A stretch of DNA of 64,000 bases from Clostridia bacterium. Lineage in GTDB: Bacteria; Bacillota; Clostridia; TANB77; CAG-465. Every line of letters starts with the position of its first letter. The stretch's first letter is position 1. The notes below the pieces were generated by a model that did not search any database, had not been told where the DNA came from, and saw nothing but the letters and a program-made list of their open reading frames with translations. Below, in pieces: positions 8,130-15,449 of this stretch. A program made the position numbers and the translations under genes. The stretch spans positions 2,727 to 66,726 of the forward strand of contig JAZSNU010000020.1 in assembly GCA_045536565.1 (NCBI GenBank), read 5' to 3'.

Positions 8130-8204
8130 TTTAGCACATGTTATGTATACTGTCAATGAGATATAAAAATAGCGATAGTTTCCTATCGCCATAAAATAAA
8201 CTTA

Positions 8205-8867
8205 TTAACTTAATGTTACTGTTACAGTACCTATTGTAGCACCTGGTCTTACATTGCTTAAAGAACCACCTTCAAGCTTTAATACATATGTAATTCCTGT
8301 AATAGAAAGAATATCATCATATGCATACATAGCTGGTATCTCACCTGAAGAAGGATATGGTGCTCCACCTGCTGCATACCATTCATAGTATTTATCTGCT
8401 TCAAATACAGTATTTTCAGAGATCTCAACAAGTATTCCGTTTTCATTTAATTCAAAATATGTTCCTGTGCTAAAATCCTCTGGTTCTTCGGATAATAATT
8501 TATATTCTCCTCCCCATAGACCACTTCTAGAATCATCCATAACTCCAATAACTGTTGGTATTGCAGAAGTAAAATTAACATCTGCTTTTACTATAACATT
8601 AGATTTATTAGTTATTGTTATATAATCGGCCATCTCAGATTCTGGTTCCCAATCATAATATTCATTACCATGCTCATCTTCAACTTTGACAAAATCATAT
8701 ACTAAACTTCCCCACTCAATATCAATATCATAGTTAACATCAGTATCGTCAACTATACCAACCTTAACTATTGAACTAGATGTTCCAAGTCCTGTTGCAA
8801 AAACAGATGGAAGAGCAATAGTAGCAACTAATAACATACAAACTACTAATTTTATACTTCTTTTCAT
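8205..8867 (-). CDS. secreted small protein, family member 3 (tandem duplicate)
   Basis: Signal peptide MKRSIKLVVCMLLVATIALPSVFA; family motif Y[DN][IV][DE]I.WGSLVY.F and C-terminal RPGATIGTVTVTLS; RBS AAGGAGGTGAAA. Confidence 0.6.
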   Translation of the reverse strand: MKRSIKLVVCMLLVATIALPSVFATGLGTSSSIVKVGIVDDTDVNYDIDIEWGSLVYDFVKVEDEHGNEYYDWEPESEMADYITITNKSNVIVKADVNFTSAIPTVIGVMDDSRSGLWGGEYKLLSEEPEDFSTGTYFELNENGILVEISENTVFEADKYYEWYAAGGAPYPSSGEIPAMYAYDDILSITGITYVLKLEGGSLSNVRPGATIGTVTVTLS

Positions 8868-8955
8868 TTATTTCACCTCCTTTTTCATAAATTTATATAT
8901 AATATTAAACTATCTATTTTTAATAAGATTATTAGATTGATATTTATAATCCAAA

Positions 8956-9612
8956 TTAGCTTAATGTTACTGTTACGGTACCTATTGTAGCTCCCGGTCT
9001 TACATCAGTTAAAGAACCACCCTCAAGTTTTAATTTCCACATTAAACTTGATACATGTACAACACCATCTAAGTTCGTTGTACATGATGGAATATCCCTG
9101 TTTTCTGATGGTCCTCCACCTGCTCCAATCCATTTGTAATATTTATCCGCTTCAAAAGTCGTATTTTCACCTTTCTCAACAAATCTTCCTTCTTCATCTC
9201 TTACATAATATGTCTCTGTATTGAAATCTTCTGGTTCTTCTGTTAATATTTGATATTCAGATCCAGCTATCCCACAATAATCAGTATCTTCAAATCCGAT
9301 AACATTTGCCATAGAAGATGTAAATTCTACATCTGCATTTATAATTACATTTGAATAATTTGTTATTTCAACTACATCTGCATTTGTTTTTTCAGGTTCC
9401 CAAATATATTCTCCGATACTAGAATCATTTGATTTAACAAAATTATATACTAAACTTCCCCATTTTATATCGACATTGTAATTAACATCAGTATTGTCAA
9501 CTGTACCAACCTTAACTATTTTACTAGATTCTCCAAGACCTGTTGCAAAAACAGTTGGAAGAGCTATAGTAGCAACTAATAACATACAAATTACTAATTT
9601 TATACTTCTTTT
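8956..9612 (-). CDS. secreted small protein, family member 2 (tandem duplicate)
   Basis: Near-identical signal peptide and C-terminus to 8205..8867; start at internal ATG because the longer ORF begins inside the RBS AAAAAGGAGGTGAAA. Confidence 0.6.
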   Translation of the reverse strand, partial: KRSIKLVICMLLVATIALPTVFATGLGESSKIVKVGTVDNTDVNYNVDIKWGSLVYNFVKSNDSSIGEYIWEPEKTNADVVEITNYSNVIINADVEFTSSMANVIGFEDTDYCGIAGSEYQILTEEPEDFNTETYYVRDEEGRFVEKGENTTFEADKYYKWIGAGGGPSENRDIPSCTTNLDGVVHVSSLMWKLKLEGGSLTDVRPGATIGTVTVTLS

Positions 9613-9686
9613 CATTTGTTTCACCTCCTTTTTCATAAACCTCTATATATTAACTTATATTTATTTTTCAGATTAAGATAATACCT

Positions 9687-10220
9687 TTATTTAACTGTTA
9701 TTTTTATTGGAATGTTAGTATTTACAATTGCTTTTTCATCAGTTTCTTCATCATAATACATAATGTTAAACATTCCTTCATACTCACCATTTGAAAGAGT
9801 TATATTTTCTTTTAAATCAAGTTCGTATATAGCATAACTTGGTGGTATTCTATTTGATTCTGCTATTACAACATCATTATCATTTTGTTTTATAATTACT
9901 TGTAATACCATACTTTGAGTTGACCTTGATGGATTTTTAAAATTAATAGAAACTTGTCCACTCTTTAAATCAATATCCACCTTGTTCGAATATGATAAAG
10001 AAACTGCTCCTCCACCTTGACTTTTTTCCATTTTATCTCCTGAGTTAGGAAGGAGCACAATATTATCATCTTCTTTCCCTGGTGCATAATCTACATATTT
10101 AGGTTCTTTAAAAAATACTAAATATACTATTATTCCTACGCATGCTAATATTATTAAAAGTAGAAATACTACTAGCTTATTTTTTCTTTCTTGTTTTTCT
10201 GCTCTTCCTTTTCTACTCAT
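9687..10220 (-). CDS. N-terminally membrane-anchored (type II) beta-rich extracellular protein
   Basis: Basic N-tail, one TM helix (LVVFLLLIILACVGIIVYLVFF), then about 140 aa hydrophilic beta-rich domain; start overlaps the upstream stop by 8 nt (translational coupling). Confidence 0.55.
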   Translation of the reverse strand: MSRKGRAEKQERKNKLVVFLLLIILACVGIIVYLVFFKEPKYVDYAPGKEDDNIVLLPNSGDKMEKSQGGGAVSLSYSNKVDIDLKSGQVSINFKNPSRSTQSMVLQVIIKQNDNDVVIAESNRIPPSYAIYELDLKENITLSNGEYEGMFNIMYYDEETDEKAIVNTNIPIKITVK

Positions 10221-10833
10221 TTTCTCTTTCCTTTCTTGTTTTTATTATTGCAAGTAATATAACTAAAATTGTACATAGTAGAATAATAAATATTACAAGT
10301 GGTGCATTATTTGTTTCATCACCTTTTATTATATCTACTAAATCCTCATACACATTAATATCTTCATTATTATCTGTTTTTATTTCTCCAGCTTGTCCTA
10401 TAACTATATAACAATCATTTGTTATCTTTTCTATCTGATTACCATTATTATCATATATTTTTATTATTTTATCCTCATTAGAATATTCTTCTAAACTAAT
10501 TCCAGATAGTATATTTTCTTTATTATCTAATATTTTCAAGTAATATACATTGTCATTTTCATCTATTTCTACCTTTGTTTTTAACCATTCAAGCGATTCA
10601 TTAGAAACTTCAAAAAGCATGATATTTAAATCCTTACTTACATTTTCATTTAATACTATTCTAATTTTGTCATCATTTAAATCATATTCTACTTTATTAT
10701 CAACTATTTCTTTTGTATGCTTACTAGTATTATCAGTATAGTTATATTTTATAACTATATCTTTACTTGTATCTGCATTTACATTTCCTAATAACACAAA
10801 TAACAAACATAAAATTACACCTATTTTCTTCAT
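10213..10833 (-). CDS. secreted protein with signal peptide and C-terminal TM anchor plus basic tail
   Basis: Signal peptide MKKIGVILCLLFVLLGNVNA; C-terminal hydrophobic segment LVIFIILLCTILVILLAII followed by KTRKERENE; sortase-independent anchor topology. Confidence 0.55.
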   Translation of the reverse strand: MKKIGVILCLLFVLLGNVNADTSKDIVIKYNYTDNTSKHTKEIVDNKVEYDLNDDKIRIVLNENVSKDLNIMLFEVSNESLEWLKTKVEIDENDNVYYLKILDNKENILSGISLEEYSNEDKIIKIYDNNGNQIEKITNDCYIVIGQAGEIKTDNNEDINVYEDLVDIIKGDETNNAPLVIFIILLCTILVILLAIIKTRKERENE

Positions 10834-11322
10834 CTATCTATCACCTATTATAATTTTACTATTTAAGCTAACTGTTCCTTTGCTGTAATATGTTTTAGGG
10901 TCATAACTCATTATTTTAATAATAACTTCTTTACTTTGTTTTAAGTTCTCTACTTTTATATTTTCAATTTGTTCACCTGGTTTTATTAAACCTGTTTCAC
11001 TTAATACATTTTCATCTTTTTCATATATTCTTAGCTTTACAAATACATTATTTTCTTCTAAGGATCTAAAATATATTTTTATATTGTTCTCTTCATCTAA
11101 AATTAAATTATTACAAATTCCAACAACATATCCCTCTGCCACATTTATTTCTGCATATTGTAATTTTCCATCTATTTTAGTATCCAATATGTTTATTGCA
11201 TTTTTATCAAATTGCGGCTTTTTAAATTCTTTTTTTGAACTTGTCATAACTGCTATAATTATTGTTAAAATTATTATTAATATTGTTATTACTACTAATA
11301 TAACCATTCCTTTATTTTTCAT
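10834..11322 (-). CDS. N-terminally membrane-anchored small extracellular protein
   Basis: Start set at ATG after RBS AGGTGGA; single N-terminal TM (VILVVITILIIILTIIIAV) then a hydrophilic domain. Confidence 0.5.
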   Translation of the reverse strand: MKNKGMVILVVITILIIILTIIIAVMTSSKKEFKKPQFDKNAINILDTKIDGKLQYAEINVAEGYVVGICNNLILDEENNIKIYFRSLEENNVFVKLRIYEKDENVLSETGLIKPGEQIENIKVENLKQSKEVIIKIMSYDPKTYYSKGTVSLNSKIIIGDR

Positions 11323-11335
11323 ATTTCCACCTATA

Positions 11336-11812
11336 TTACTGCACACTCATAGTTATTCTTCCCACTTTTATATATTCATCTTTGTCAGAAGTTATTGTTC
11401 CTGCCATACTGAAAGTTACTTCTTCTTTACTATTTTTATCTATTTTAACTCTATCTTTATTAAATTTTCCAGTAATACCCATACCTCTTTTAGTTTGTTC
11501 ATATTTAAAACTAATTGTAATTGGTTCATCTGAAAAATTTTTAATATCTATTTTATTATTTTTATTTATCCATTCAGTTTCTGTCACTATATCATATTGT
11601 TTTTCTTTATCATCCCACTTAATATCTTTTGTTTCGTTATATGTAAAGTTCATATTATCCCATGATATTTCAATATCATATACTGATTCTTCTTTATCAT
11701 CTATCCCTTCAACTTCACCTACTGTTACATTTTTAGTAGATGTACAATATGATGTTGAAATACATAATAATATAACTAAGCCTATTAATACTTTTAAATA
11801 TATTTTTTTCAT
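11336..11812 (-). CDS. secreted (possibly lipo-) protein, family member 1, first gene of the cluster
   Basis: Signal peptide MKKIYLKVLIGLVILLCISTSYC (possible lipobox LLC); shares YDIEISWDNMNFTY and C-terminal VGRITMSVQ with the 220/226-aa paralogs; start at ATG after RBS AAGGAAAGAGGAAAT. Confidence 0.55.
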   Translation of the reverse strand: MKKIYLKVLIGLVILLCISTSYCTSTKNVTVGEVEGIDDKEESVYDIEISWDNMNFTYNETKDIKWDDKEKQYDIVTETEWINKNNKIDIKNFSDEPITISFKYEQTKRGMGITGKFNKDRVKIDKNSKEEVTFSMAGTITSDKDEYIKVGRITMSVQ

Positions 11813-11934
11813 ATTTCCTCTTTCCTTCATGCAAAGTATAACACAATAAAACTTTTATTACAATACATTTGTTATGCATAATTATATATTTTATGCATAT
11901 ATAATTATATTAGTAAATGTAATGAGAGGTAATT

Positions 11935-12108
11935 ATGAAAAAATTTAAAATACCATCTATACCACCAACAACAAATAAATGTATTAGATTTCCAAATAAT
12001 ATTATTGAAGAAATAGAACAATGTATAGAAGGAAAAGATTGTACTTTCACAGCATTTGTTGTAGAAGCAGTTAGAGTGGCATTAGAAAATTTAAAAGAGG
12101 AACAGTAA
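11935..12108 (+). CDS. YlcI/YnfO-like (DUF3950-type) small DNA-binding protein, 57 aa
   Basis: Manual translation MKKFKIPSIPPTTNKCIRFPNNIIEEIEQCIEGKDCTFTAFVVEAVRVALENLKEEQ; IRFP..[IV][IV]EEIE...FTAFV.EAV motif of the YlcI/YnfO family; divergent from the secreted-protein cluster; rho-independent terminator overlaps its stop. Confidence 0.5.
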   Translation: MKKFKIPSIPPTTNKCIRFPNNIIEEIEQCIEGKDCTFTAFVVEAVRVALENLKEEQ

Positions 12109-12139
12109 AATTAATTTTTTTACTGTTCCTCTTTTCTTG
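12097..12139 (+). terminator. rho-independent terminator (GAGGAACAGTA ... TACTGTTCCTC + T-run)
   Basis: Perfect 11-bp stem followed by TTTTCTTG. Confidence 0.7.
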
Positions 12140-12193
12140 TATTGATATTTCAATTTTTTTATGCTATATTTTTTATATAGGAGGATATAGAAA

Positions 12194-12817
12194 ATGAAAA
12201 AATTATTTATAACTTTAATAGTTTGTATATGTGTAGTTTTAATTGTAACTATTATTACTAGAACAGATTTATTTAATAAAAAAACAACACCTAACATTTC
12301 ACAAAAAAATAATTATGATGTTTCCGAAATGCTTGAAAATATTCTAAACATTTCAAATATTTATGTGGAATATACTGACATGGATAATAAAACTACTTAT
12401 ATTTACAAAAAAGATTATCTAGAAAAAACTGTTTCTAATTATAGTACAAAAATATTCGATACAAAAGATAATATATCTAAAGTTTATAAAACCGATTCAA
12501 AAGAAGGTATTATATCGCCTATCTCTGATTTGAATTATAAAAACTCATATTTTTATTATTGTAATACAATTCTTGATACTCTTAAAAATAATAAATATGA
12601 AATACTTAATGACTCTATAAACGGAAAAGATTGTATAAAAGTTGTATTTAAAGATGAAGATTTTGAAGCTTGGTTTGAAAAAGAAAATAATTTATTAATA
12701 AAAATTTATTCTAATAAAACTAATGGTACTGTAGAATTTAAAAATATAAAAATTAATTCTTTAACTGATGATGATTTTAAAGTTCCTAACGATGTAATCT
12801 TAAAAGAAGTAAAATAA
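12194..12817 (+). CDS. membrane-anchored hypothetical protein (N-terminal TM, Asn/Lys-rich ectodomain)
   Basis: RBS TAGGAGGATATAG; one N-terminal TM helix; no catalytic motif. Confidence 0.55.
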   Translation: MKKLFITLIVCICVVLIVTIITRTDLFNKKTTPNISQKNNYDVSEMLENILNISNIYVEYTDMDNKTTYIYKKDYLEKTVSNYSTKIFDTKDNISKVYKTDSKEGIISPISDLNYKNSYFYYCNTILDTLKNNKYEILNDSINGKDCIKVVFKDEDFEAWFEKENNLLIKIYSNKTNGTVEFKNIKINSLTDDDFKVPNDVILKEVK

Positions 12818-12919
12818 TAAAACAAATAATATTACGATTGATAATAAATTTAATTATCCTTAATCCTTTATAAAAAAATAACAACAGCTCTACTGTTGCT
12901 ATTTTTTATATATTTTTAA

Positions 12920-13477
12920 TTAACATCTTTCCATGTATTCACCAGTTCTTGTATCAACACGGATTCTATCTCCTATTTCAACAAAGATTGGTACATTGAA
13001 TTCTACACCCGTTTCAACCTTAGCTGGTTTAGTAGTTCCTGTAGATGTTGCACCTTTTATTCCTGGTTCTGTATATACTACTTCAAGTTCTACAAACAAT
13101 GGTGGTTCTACACCAAATACTTTTCCTTTATATGATAATACTTTAACATCCATATTGTCTTTAAGGTATGGTAATATATTTTCTACATCATCCTTAGATA
13201 ATTCTAATTGTTCATATGTATTATTATCCATAAAAGTATATGTTTCTCCATCGTTGTATAAGAATTGCATTTCAGTAATAGTTACTTGTGCTTCTTCAAA
13301 TTTTTCTGATGGGTTAAATGTTTTTTCCATTGTTGTATTGTTAATTATATTTTTTATTTTAGTTCTAACAAATGCTGCACCTTTACCTGGTTTAACATGT
13401 TGGAATTCAACTATTCTATATACGTTTCCATCCATTTCAAATGTTGTACCATTTCTAAAATCTCCTGCTAGTACCAT
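12920..13477 (-). CDS. efp: elongation factor P
   Basis: Conserved [12 protein letters not shown] loop region and overall EF-P length (185 aa). Confidence 0.95.
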
Positions 13478-13492
13478 AAAAACCTCCGATTA

Positions 13493-13837
13493 CTATTTAA
13501 TTTTTTCAACTAATGCTGCAAATCCTTGGCTGTCTGAAACTGCCATTTCAGCTAACATTTTTCTGTTAATGTTTATATTAGCTTTTTTAAGACCAGAAAT
13601 AAATTTGCTGTATGACATTCCATTTTGTCTAGCTGCTGCATTTATTCTAGCTATCCATAATCTTCTAAAATCTCTCTTTTTATTTTTTCTTCCAACATAA
13701 GCATACATACCTGATTTCATAACAGCTTGGTTAGCCATTCTAAATCTTATGCTTTTTGCTCCATAATATCCTTTTGCTCTTTTTAATACTTTCTTATGTC
13801 TTGCTCTTGTTGTAACTGCTCCTTTTACTCTTGCCAC
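13493..13837 (-). CDS. rplT: 50S ribosomal protein L20
   Basis: [26 protein letters not shown] ... typical L20. Confidence 0.96.
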
Positions 13838-13870
13838 AATAATTCCTCCTAACTTTTCCTAATTTATCTA

Positions 13871-14068
13871 TTATTGATATGGTAATAATTTCTTCATTGC
13901 ATTGCTGTTTGCTGAATCAACATATGCTGCTTCTCTAAGACTTCTTTTTCTTTTTGAACTTTTACCTGTTAATTTGTGTGCTCTGTTTGCTACAGTCTTC
14001 TTAGCAATTCCTGATTTTGTAATTTTAATTCTCTTTTTTGCACCACTATGGCTTTTCATTTTTGGCAT
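13871..14068 (-). CDS. rpmI: 50S ribosomal protein L35
   Basis: MPKMKSHSGAKKRIKITKSG typical L35, 65 aa. Confidence 0.95.
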   Translation of the reverse strand: MPKMKSHSGAKKRIKITKSGIAKKTVANRAHKLTGKSSKRKRSLREAAYVDSANSNAMKKLLPYQ

Positions 14069-14081
14069 AATTAATTCCTCC

Positions 14082-14600
14082 TTATTTGCTTTGTTTTGGC
14101 GATATTATAACATTTAAGAATTTTCCTTCAAGCTTAGGTTCTTTTTCTACTTGACCTTCTTCAATTAAAGAAATAAATTTATCAATTATTTCTCTTCCTT
14201 TATTTACGAAGCTAAGTTCTCTGCCTTTGAATCTTAAAGAAACTTTTACTTTATCACCAGATTTTAAAAATTTATTAGCATTTTTTGCCTTAACTTCTAA
14301 ATCATGAGTATCAATACTTGCTGATAATCTAACTTCTTTAAGTTCAACTACTTTTTGTTTTTTTCTAGCTTCTTTTTCTTTTTTAGCCATTTCGAATTTA
14401 AATTTACTGTAATCTAGTATTTTACAAACTGGTGGATTACCATTAGCACCTACTAATACTAAATCTTTGTCCTGATCATAAGCTTTTTCGATAGCCTCTT
14501 TTACAGACATTTCTCCTAATCTTTCACCATTTTCTCCAATTACTTGTACAGTATTTGCCCTAATTTGCTCGTTAATTAAAAAATCTTGTTTTATATTAAT
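14082..14600 (-). CDS. infC: translation initiation factor IF-3 (non-ATG, probable AUU start)
   Basis: IF-3 C-domain in the ATG-ORF; frame continues upstream through ...QDFLINEQIRANTVQVIGENGERLGE, the IF-3 N-domain; candidate ATT start at about 14600 a few nt after GGGGGTG; infC classically uses AUU. Confidence 0.8.
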   Translation of the reverse strand: MNIKQDFLINEQIRANTVQVIGENGERLGEMSVKEAIEKAYDQDKDLVLVGANGNPPVCKILDYSKFKFEMAKKEKEARKKQKVVELKEVRLSASIDTHDLEVKAKNANKFLKSGDKVKVSLRFKGRELSFVNKGREIIDKFISLIEEGQVEKEPKLEGKFLNVIISPKQSK

Positions 14601-14760
14601 ACACCCCCATAAAAAAAGATTGCTTAAAGCTCAAGCAATCTCCTCACATACAAAAATTAAAATATATACATATCATTAAAAACATTTTTGTATTACCTTG
14701 ACTAAGACAAAACTTGCAAGGTGAGAAGATAACTTCTACTTTACAAATAATATTATACAT
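14601..14760 (-). ncRNA. probable L20-responsive leader / transcription attenuator of the infC-rpmI-rplT operon
   Basis: Hairpin GATTGCTTGAGCTTTAAGCAATC followed by a T-run immediately upstream of the infC start (minus strand), preceded by a second palindrome CTTGCAAG; matches the L20 autoregulatory attenuation arrangement of low-GC Gram-positives. Confidence 0.4.
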
Positions 14761-14933
14761 TATTTTTTCTATTTGTCAATAATTATGTAATATATATTTA
14801 AAATTTATTTATATATTATTCTTAATGTATTCTATATGTTTTTAGTTACATTACTTATACATCAAAAAGCAATTTGTTTTAGGTGCATATTTATTTCAAA
14901 TAATATTATAAAATGCTTACTGGAGGATATATT

Positions 14934-15137
14934 ATGAATAAATTAAAAATTCCTAAAAACCATAGTGGTATTAGTAAAACACTTCGTTTACCTGAAAATA
15001 TTGTAGATGATGTTCAAAACCTTGCAAATATTAAAAATTTATCTTTTAATAAAACAGTAGGTTGTTTATTAGAGTTTGCATTAAATAATTTAGACGAAAG
15101 TGATAAATCTAATTTAGATAAATTAAAATATAATTAA
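14934..15137 (+). CDS. YlcI/YnfO-like small protein, second paralog (67 aa)
   Basis: MNKLKIPKNHSGISKTLRLPENIVDDVQNLANIKNLSFNKTVGCLLEFALNNL aligns with the 11935 protein ([IL]R[FL]P.N[IV][IV] ... SF[TN] ... E[AF]); RBS GGAGGA 6 nt upstream of the ATG. Confidence 0.5.
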   Translation: MNKLKIPKNHSGISKTLRLPENIVDDVQNLANIKNLSFNKTVGCLLEFALNNLDESDKSNLDKLKYN

Positions 15138-15176
15138 ATTATCTTATATATGAACAAAGAGAAGATGTGTATATTT

Positions 15177-15449
15177 TTACATTTCTTCCCTTTTTGTATA
15201 TTCTAATTTAATTTTAGTATCATTATCCATATTTAAAATAATACCATTTTCTAAATAGTCAATTTTATATATTTGATTTATATTTATAATAATTTTTACA
15301 TTTTGTTTATTTTCTATACTTAACAAATCATTTTTTATATTATATGTATAATCAAATATATAAAAATTTGTTTCAATAAATCCTAACTGAGAAACCAATA
15401 TGTTTCTTTCTTTTTTACGATTCAAAAATCTAATTATCTCTTCGTTCAT
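15177..15449 (-). CDS. hypothetical protein
   Basis: Start set at ATG (MNEEIIRF) after RBS AAAGGAG; no motif recognised. Confidence 0.45.
   Translation of the reverse strand: MNEEIIRFLNRKKERNILVSQLGFIETNFYIFDYTYNIKNDLLSIENKQNVKIIININQIYKIDYLENGIILNMDNDTKIKLEYTKREEM

Follow-up and report, generated by a model that had tools for sequence, protein, structure and literature searches.

A small ribbon-helix-helix-like gene with a conserved upstream box at a divergent promoter in gut Clostridia: a plausible local repressor of a secreted-protein operon

Small ribbon-helix-helix (RHH) proteins that repress their own synthesis at divergent promoters are already known. CopG (RepA) of pMV158/pLS1, a protein of 45 amino acids, binds cooperatively to four sites that lie one helical turn apart and span the -35 and -10 elements (PMC2724298). 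Reg576, the establishment-gene repressor of Bacillus pumilus p576, represses several promoters, its own among them, by way of paired short motifs that are occupied by two dimers with high cooperativity, and a transient burst of expression follows transfer until the repressor has accumulated (PMC6294495). Arc and Mnt belong to the divergent ant/arc-mnt region of phage P22. YlcI (DLP12) and YnfO (Qin) are E. coli prophage proteins of a family named by NCBI; a full-text literature search for the YlcI/YnfO (DUF3950-like) family returned passing mentions and no functional study. Here we describe a gene for a 57-amino-acid protein of this family, together with its upstream DNA, in a stretch of 64,000 nucleotides (the window; G+C 28%) from Clostridia bacterium contig JAZSNU010000020.1. 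The gene faces an operon encoding secreted or membrane-anchored proteins, and an earlier reading of the letters without database searches (the sequence-only reading) had proposed that it switches this cluster. Comparison with relatives suggests that it is a plausible local repressor of the cluster, not a cluster-specific switch.

The small gene and its expression signals are the following.
11935..12108, plus strand: ATG open reading frame (ORF) of the 57-amino-acid protein, product MKKFKIPSIPPTTNKCIRFPNNIIEEIEQCIEGKDCTFTAFVVEAVRVALENLKEEQ
11924..11929, plus strand: Shine-Dalgarno (SD) sequence GAGAGG, read from the sequence; relatives have GAGGTGAT in the same position
12093..12135, no strand assigned: predicted intrinsic terminator hairpin, an 18-bp stem followed by a T-run, overlapping the stop codon of the small gene

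The reading frame was correctly described as divergent from the cluster. It has its own SD and, since the terminator sits at the stop codon, it is an isolated monocistronic unit. The protein has 3140 homologous clusters at 90% identity, the best 120 of which share 82-100% identity with it. Nucleotide differences between the small gene and 88 relatives number 2211, 751 and 201 at codon positions 3, 1 and 2, respectively. By its homologues and by the bias of substitutions to the third codon position, 11935..12108 is a true gene under purifying selection.

The YlcI/YnfO (DUF3950-type) signature ascribed to the protein was recovered by NCBIfam and BLASTP searches but not by Pfam. The NCBIfam model NF041551 (YlcI_YnfO_N) matches the protein with 35.4 bits (E 8.3e-9), above its curated cutoff of 30, and matches 50 of 53 sampled sequences that represent both the protein's own family and a paralogous one (E<=1; best 5.4e-10); searched on its own, a second ORF of the window at 14934..15137 gave no match to NF041551. 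E. coli YlcI (from MG1655) is 49% identical over 35 residues by BLASTP, hhalign aligns it to the family alignment with a probability of 87.7%, and PHROG 949 is matched at 8.8e-10. YlcI shares the signature IRFPN..IE.I......K...F.A.V.EA and is also a small solo gene. However, PF13132/DUF3950 (gathering threshold 25 bits) matched neither the 57-amino-acid protein (E<=10) nor any of the 53 members (E<=1), whereas E. coli YlcI, as a positive control, scored 72.8 bits; this model is 30 positions long and was built narrowly. The E. coli genes also differ in lying on prophages, while the window's family is nearly absent from phage collections. A sequence search of the PDB with the protein returned nothing relevant. 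One relative from a 50% cluster library, P0247, shows four tandem matches to the 57-amino-acid domain in a single predicted protein of 238 amino acids, which may be a fusion or a set of tandem genes called as one.

The RHH fold of the protein is likely, although not proven. An AlphaFold2 (AF2) model of the monomer, built from the 53-sequence alignment with a mean predicted local distance difference test (pLDDT) score of 71.8, has an extended N-terminus without a beta-strand, followed by helices at residues 21-31 and 38-56. For an RHH protein a missing strand is expected, because the partner chain is absent from a single-chain prediction. Foldseek searches of the PDB gave 23 matches, 22 of which are RHH proteins: Arc (the commonest), CopG, CopA, PutA-RHH, TacA, NikA, Reg576 (6gyg), ParD, MazE and PrpA. 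These matches are weak (all E >=0.88; TM scores 0.4-0.75), and in the best cases the root-mean-square deviation is about 1.4-1.6 A across 37-41 residues. Below-cutoff Pfam matches among the 53 members are to CopG_antitoxin, RHH_1 and Arc. The modelled helices, the Foldseek matches and these sub-threshold Pfam matches together point to the RHH fold.

A scan of GTDB species representatives identified more than 404 relatives, of which 80 loci, from metagenome-assembled genomes of gut and rumen Clostridia, were fetched (labelled L001 and so on). Eighty-three distinct related upstream regions were aligned, and 76 were used for a promoter profile. In blastn comparisons, nearly all relatives align with the window from a sharp edge at 11857-11861 to an end at 12101-12108, and the family profile includes a leftward -10 at 11835-11840. 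By these limits the RHH gene and about 100 bp upstream of it form a self-contained conserved unit of about 275 bp. This RHH-plus-promoter unit is conserved across hundreds of gut Clostridia species. Its spacer holds the following elements.
11858..11880, no strand assigned: conserved box TTGCAATACATTTGTTATGCAT, that is TTACAATACATTTGTTATGCATA or TTACAATACAT-T-TGTTATGCATA; candidate operator
11863..11835, minus strand: predicted leftward promoter P_div, TTGTAA-17-TGnTATACT, with a near-consensus extended -10
11863..11858, minus strand: -35 of P_div, TTGTAA, inside box unit 1 and followed by the 17-nt spacer
11843..11842 and 11840..11835, minus strand: TG and -10 TATACT of P_div, predicted from the sequence
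11900..11905, plus strand: TATAAT, the likely -10 of the small gene's promoter (P_small), deduced from the family profile
11877..11882, plus strand: CATAAT, a weak -35 of P_small, read from the sequence
11914..11924, minus strand: degenerate inverted copy of box unit 1 (a third unit) just 5' of the SD, with 8/9-8/11 matches, below the threshold of the position weight matrix (PWM)
11889..11899, plus strand: additional direct copy of box unit 2 peculiar to the window, TTTTATGCATA (versus TGTTATGCATA), overlapping the -10 of P_small
11878..11889 and 11897..11908, no strand assigned: AT-rich perfect 12-nt inverted repeat ATAATTATATAT / ATATATAATTAT around the -10 of P_small, lineage-specific

The box is made of two related units of 10-11 nt, unit 1 and unit 2, set one helical turn (11 nt) apart. 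Its family-wide form is TTGCAATACATTTG(T/C)(T/A)ATGCAT, with column conservation of 80-99%, and TGCAATACA is present with at most one mismatch in 76 of the 83 upstream regions. The composite 21-mer box occurs once in the 64 kb against 0.09 occurrences expected. The P_div of relatives reads TTGCAA-(16-18)-TATAAT, with a -10 of at least 5/6 matches in 63 and a TG extension in 68 of the 76 profiled regions, and its -35 lies within the box in nearly all loci. In the rightward direction, the profile anchored on the box shows a TATAAT conserved about 40 nt downstream of unit 1; no -35 of P_small clearer than CATACA/CATAAT was found in the family profile or in the window sequence. Both predicted transcription starts are downstream of the box, which would therefore act as DNA rather than as RNA. 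A search of 11500-15300 against Rfam gave sub-threshold matches only, and no known cis-regulatory RNA was found in the spacer.

An inverted copy of unit 1, TGTATTGCA, is found in most relatives at -18..-23 from the ATG (about 47 sites), between the conserved TATAAT and the SD, and an inverted unit-1 copy at any position is present in 55 of the 83 upstream regions. Start-to-start spacings of 36, 47 and 58 nt between the box and the inverted unit, which are steps of 11 nt, account for 34 of 51 cases. The arrangement is that expected of a multi-site operator, with short sites in helical register over the regulated promoters: the units are 11 nt apart and cover the -35s of P_div and, presumably, of P_small. 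The geometry of an operator overlapping divergent promoters, which the sequence-only reading had expected, is therefore borne out by the 76-83 related upstream regions. Single box units occur in the 64 kb at chance level (34 found, 26 expected), the top single-unit PWM match in the window falls inside rpoC, and no further target of the 57-amino-acid protein was evident in the 64 kb by composite-box and single-unit searches. In L059 (1100-1700) the whole RHH unit is duplicated in tandem; ahead of either copy stands a perfect 20-nt palindrome, TATACAAATTATGCATTGCA / TGCAATGCATAATTTGTATA, in which the box units are arranged in inverted orientation.

The neighbourhoods of the RHH gene were compared among the loci of relatives. 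Of 87 loci, 67 have a divergent gene as upstream neighbour. Among 81 distinct loci, 67 show a divergent, SD-bearing ORF whose start lies at a distance of 92-199 nt, in most cases about 115-145 nt. These divergent neighbours are mutually unrelated, for the most part membrane or secreted proteins, and include Zn-ribbon membrane proteins, DUF4190, DUF4236, DUF4352 and Cu_amine_oxidN1 proteins, as well as enolase, SpoIIGA and GGDEF proteins; 44 of the 67 carry a strongly hydrophobic segment. Downstream neighbours are also unrelated across loci, and no conserved downstream partner was found. More than 3,000 RHH clusters stand against 12 homologues, among 5.8 billion proteins, of the one operon protein searched (8205..8867, 220 amino acids). 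This disparity and the heterogeneous neighbours indicate that the RHH unit is generic, neither co-evolved with nor dedicated to the secreted-protein cluster. The proposed role as a switch for that cluster was therefore too specific: the same unit stands beside dozens of unrelated genes, and the protein has no sensor domain.

We consider it moderately probable that the protein is an RHH repressor of the CopG/Reg576 type that binds the phased box units and represses both its own promoter and P_div. Binding of dimers to the phased units would be cooperative, as it is for CopG and Reg576, and the bound protein would occlude the -35 of P_div as well as the -35 and start region of P_small. Repression would then hit both the synthesis of the protein itself and transcription from P_div, whose output in this genome would be the six-gene secreted/membrane operon 11812..8205. 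Such negative feedback would set the dose of expression and would allow a burst of expression at low repressor levels, such as may follow transfer or dilution. Dose-setting feedback is more likely than a signal-responsive switch, since the protein has 57 residues and no sensor or ligand-binding part. We infer DNA binding and repression, like the fold, from these comparisons, and on their strength the small protein probably damps its own transcription and that of its neighbour.

CopG resembles the window protein in being a very small RHH protein with sites phased by one turn over its promoter; in the present case the -35s are covered by two box units spaced by 11 nt, and a third site lies at distances stepped by 11 nt. 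CopG differs in being upstream of, and co-transcribed with, a replication initiator gene, whereas the window gene is monocistronic, belongs to a mostly chromosomal family and faces a divergent promoter. The two proteins have no significant sequence similarity, and binding is documented for CopG and predicted for the window protein. Reg576 is likewise among the fold matches, and part of the window's family resides in mobilizable elements. However, its motifs are TTATCCC heptamers as opposed to the TGCAATRCAT-like units of the window's family, it controls four dispersed promoters in place of a single local bidirectional region, and most members of the window's family are not on recognisable mobile elements. 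Arc and Mnt are small RHH repressors of compact divergent or overlapping promoters as well, but they act in a phage immunity context on other operators and are unrelated in sequence beyond the fold.

Several observations weigh against repression of both promoters by the adjacent protein. P_div is kept even in the 14 of 81 loci in which no divergent ORF was found, and it may therefore serve the RHH unit itself in some way. The -35 of the small gene's own promoter is poor. Seventeen of the 51 box spacings fall outside the 11-nt series, and as the inverted third unit is degenerate in the window, control at this locus may differ or be weaker. The Foldseek E values all exceed 0.8, and the monomer model, with the mean pLDDT given above, does not form the beta-strand. 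Finally, a conserved promoter region does not by itself prove that the adjacent protein binds it.

The sequence-only reading had put the operator elsewhere, in an AT-rich dyad built on ATGCAT (11874-11910), and had made the protein a dedicated on/off switch of the secreted-protein cluster. The strings that it quoted, ATGCATAATTATATAT at 11874-11889 and ATGCATATATAATTATAT at 11893-11910, are present and include a 10-nt direct repeat. Dinucleotide shuffling of the 122-nt spacer (2000 rounds) produced an inverted repeat of at least 12 nt in 0.1% and a direct repeat of at least 10 nt in 3%; TTATGCATA occurs at only four distinct positions in the 64 kb, and two of these are in the spacer, 19 nt apart. 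By these frequencies and this scarcity the repeats are non-random, and the dyad overlaps the -10 of P_small and is kept at 11/12 in L009, the closest syntenic relative. It is nevertheless absent from the other approximately 80 upstream regions, despite an identical presumed DNA-reading strand of the protein (NKCIRFP) in all family-1 sequences shown. The first ATGCAT lies inside box unit 2 and is the only one that belongs to the box, while the second (11893-11898) is part of the extra unit-2 copy and is missing from L009 and the other relatives. Composed of A and T only and carrying TATAAT on both strands, the dyad may simply be promoter sequence. The RHH family, moreover, is about 250 times more widespread than the cluster. 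An operator in the dyad with a dedicated switch is thus very unlikely, and the conserved candidate remains TTGCAATACATTTGTTATGCAT. Another explanation, which we regard as unlikely, is that the protein regulates only itself, or acts in trans elsewhere, and that P_div is an independent constitutive promoter sharing the spacer. Small RHH autorepressors are common, and both the loci with P_div and no divergent ORF and the functional heterogeneity of the neighbours agree with such a role. However, in nearly all loci the most conserved box unit includes the -35 of P_div, so that binding would hardly spare P_div, and the 64 kb searched contains no second composite box.

A remnant of a mobile element, in which the protein would be a relaxosome accessory, a partition protein binding a centromere (PrgO/omega/ParG type) or an establishment regulator, is a most unlikely source of the unit, although the two most abundant alleles, P0056 and P0098, sit between Mob_Pre and integrase in integrative mobilizable elements, NikA and Reg576 are among the fold matches, and 11 of the 53 members match PrgO weakly (best 0.0035). 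The tblastn searches of the 64-kb window with the RepA_N, Mob_Pre, DUF6076, excisionase and integrase proteins found nothing, and element parts are present at only 13 of 80 species-representative loci, mostly without the full backbone. The family is nearly absent from mobile collections, with 2 phage records, 0 plasmids and 3 IMG/VR loci. No ParA-type gene, as would accompany a partition RHH protein, is adjacent in the window or in the loci examined. A relaxosome accessory would be expected beside or upstream of a relaxase and origin of transfer (oriT) on a mobile element, but even on the elements that carry it the gene does not precede the relaxase gene: it is convergent with Mob_Pre or has a cargo gene in between. 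It is extremely improbable that the protein serves as antitoxin in a type II toxin-antitoxin system. Several of the fold matches are RHH domains of antitoxins, and 41 of the 53 members match CopG_antitoxin weakly (best E 4.8e-4, below cutoff). The gene, though, is monocistronic with a terminator at its stop codon, the protein ends a few residues past helix 2 and so has no C-terminal tail for binding a toxin, and the conserved downstream partner of a type II pair is lacking. Repression of P_small and P_div through the phased box units thus remains the reading that we prefer.

The presumed target of P_div has the following boundaries.
8205..11812, minus strand: six-gene operon (ORFs) of secreted (signal-peptide) or membrane-anchored proteins
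8192..8169, minus strand: terminator hairpin closing the operon, followed by the strong promoter of a miaB-like gene

No Pfam or NCBIfam family matched the operon proteins. The genes follow one another at distances of no more than a few bases except at the last two gaps, which measure 50 and 88 nt, and inside 8205..11812 no terminator was predicted; with P_div in front and the closing hairpin behind, P_div plausibly drives all six genes. The first gene likely starts at ATG 11812, preceded by the SD AAGGAAAGAGGAAAT. Its longest ORF would start at 11830, which the predicted position of P_div makes unlikely. The spacer between the divergent genes consequently measures 122 nt from the likely start, and 104 nt from the longest upstream ORF, where the sequence-only reading gave 100 bp. 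Within the operon, 8205-8867 and 8956-9636 are tandem paralogues. The window, L009 and L098 share the gene order miaB, cluster, RHH, efp, with operon and RHH gene in synteny at all three loci; in L097, a distant form of the cluster has no box and is followed by a Peptidase_S26 (signal peptidase) gene. The segment between RHH and efp holds a gene for a 207-amino-acid membrane or lipoprotein-like product in the window (12194-12817, plus strand), a minus-strand gene of 333 amino acids in L009 (6172-7384), and nothing in L098 (2892-2955) or L087. This variation indicates that the RHH unit is flanked by variable DNA on both sides.

Further observations concern the unit on mobile elements and its adjoining genes. 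The elements that hold P0056 and P0098 have the gene order RepA_N, Mob_Pre, cargo, RHH, accessory genes, DUF6076, excisionase, integrase. Backbones of such elements are 83-95% identical between L001 (5267-6347), L005 (5270-6186) and L040, and a cassette consisting of the cargo gene and the divergent RHH gene lies between Mob_Pre and a shared 170-bp segment in opposite orientations; its cargo differs, being a DUF4190 protein of 198 amino acids or a membrane protein of 139 amino acids. L013 (3747-4687) and L014 (5132-5869) are syntenic on both sides of the unit, and the P_div-driven gene alone differs, encoding a Zn-ribbon membrane protein or a DUF4190 protein. The two sequences cease to match 131 nt before the RHH ATG, where the cargo gene has its SD and start codon. 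In six species (L043, L045, L070, L073, L075 and L085) a gene beginning with MKNNLPKRKPTRLKGYDY overlaps the RHH stop codon by 5-11 nt, an overlap that suggests translational coupling of the two genes. The N-terminus of its product presumably resembles a transposase of the repetitive extragenic palindrome (REP)-associated or IS200-type tyrosine class.

The second ORF of the window had been taken for another copy of the small protein.
14934..15137, plus strand: paralogous RHH-like gene of 67 amino acids, 32% identical to the 57-amino-acid protein, with its own upstream box GGTGCATAT

The ORF exists, but its low identity and its membership of a separate, equally conserved family of 1915 clusters make it a paralogue and not a copy. 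In the upstream DNA of that family an inverted repeat ATATGCACC-N7/8-GGTGCATAT is followed by TATAAAAT and then by TTGCAA next to the SD, and the leftward element reads TGnTAATAT. The overall layout is like that of the 57-amino-acid family while the box is different, and this family likewise faces variable divergent genes. The strand presumed to read the DNA is NKCIRFP in all family-1 sequences shown and SKTLRLP in the paralogous family. The strands thus differ in parallel with the boxes, which would fit boxes that are cognate operators, a comparison of two families only. Two members of the paralogous family near mraZ, L104 and L105, have an identical RHH allele of 66 amino acids and identical downstream genes; their divergent genes share a hydrophobic, prepilin-like N-terminus and differ in the remainder, the products being 386 amino acids without a Pfam match and 326 amino acids with Flg_new. 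On the minus strand at 14670-14747, upstream of infC-rpmI-rplT, a sub-threshold match to the ribosomal protein L20 leader was seen (30 bits against a gathering score of 58.7).

A further view of the unit of about 275 bp is that it serves as a portable, self-limiting expression platform and marks a slot for the exchange of membrane and surface genes in gut Clostridia; perhaps its high sequence conservation creates the slot by acting as a recombination arm. We rate this as quite unlikely; compatible with it are the 44 of 67 neighbours with a strongly hydrophobic segment, the pairs L013/L014 and L104/L105, and the element cassettes in both orientations.

What appears to be new is the unit of protein, box and promoters, along with how widely it occurs in gut Clostridia and how its neighbours turn over. 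If the proposed mechanism is true, it would give the YlcI/YnfO (DUF3950-like) family its first testable function and would represent a cognate pair of protein and operator that recurs among gut and rumen Clostridia, in several hundred genomes at the species level. The unit could then be used as a compact, autoregulated bidirectional promoter for genetics in poorly tractable Clostridia, and the genes adjoining it, including the six-gene operon described here, would be flagged as accessory surface functions under a common control logic.

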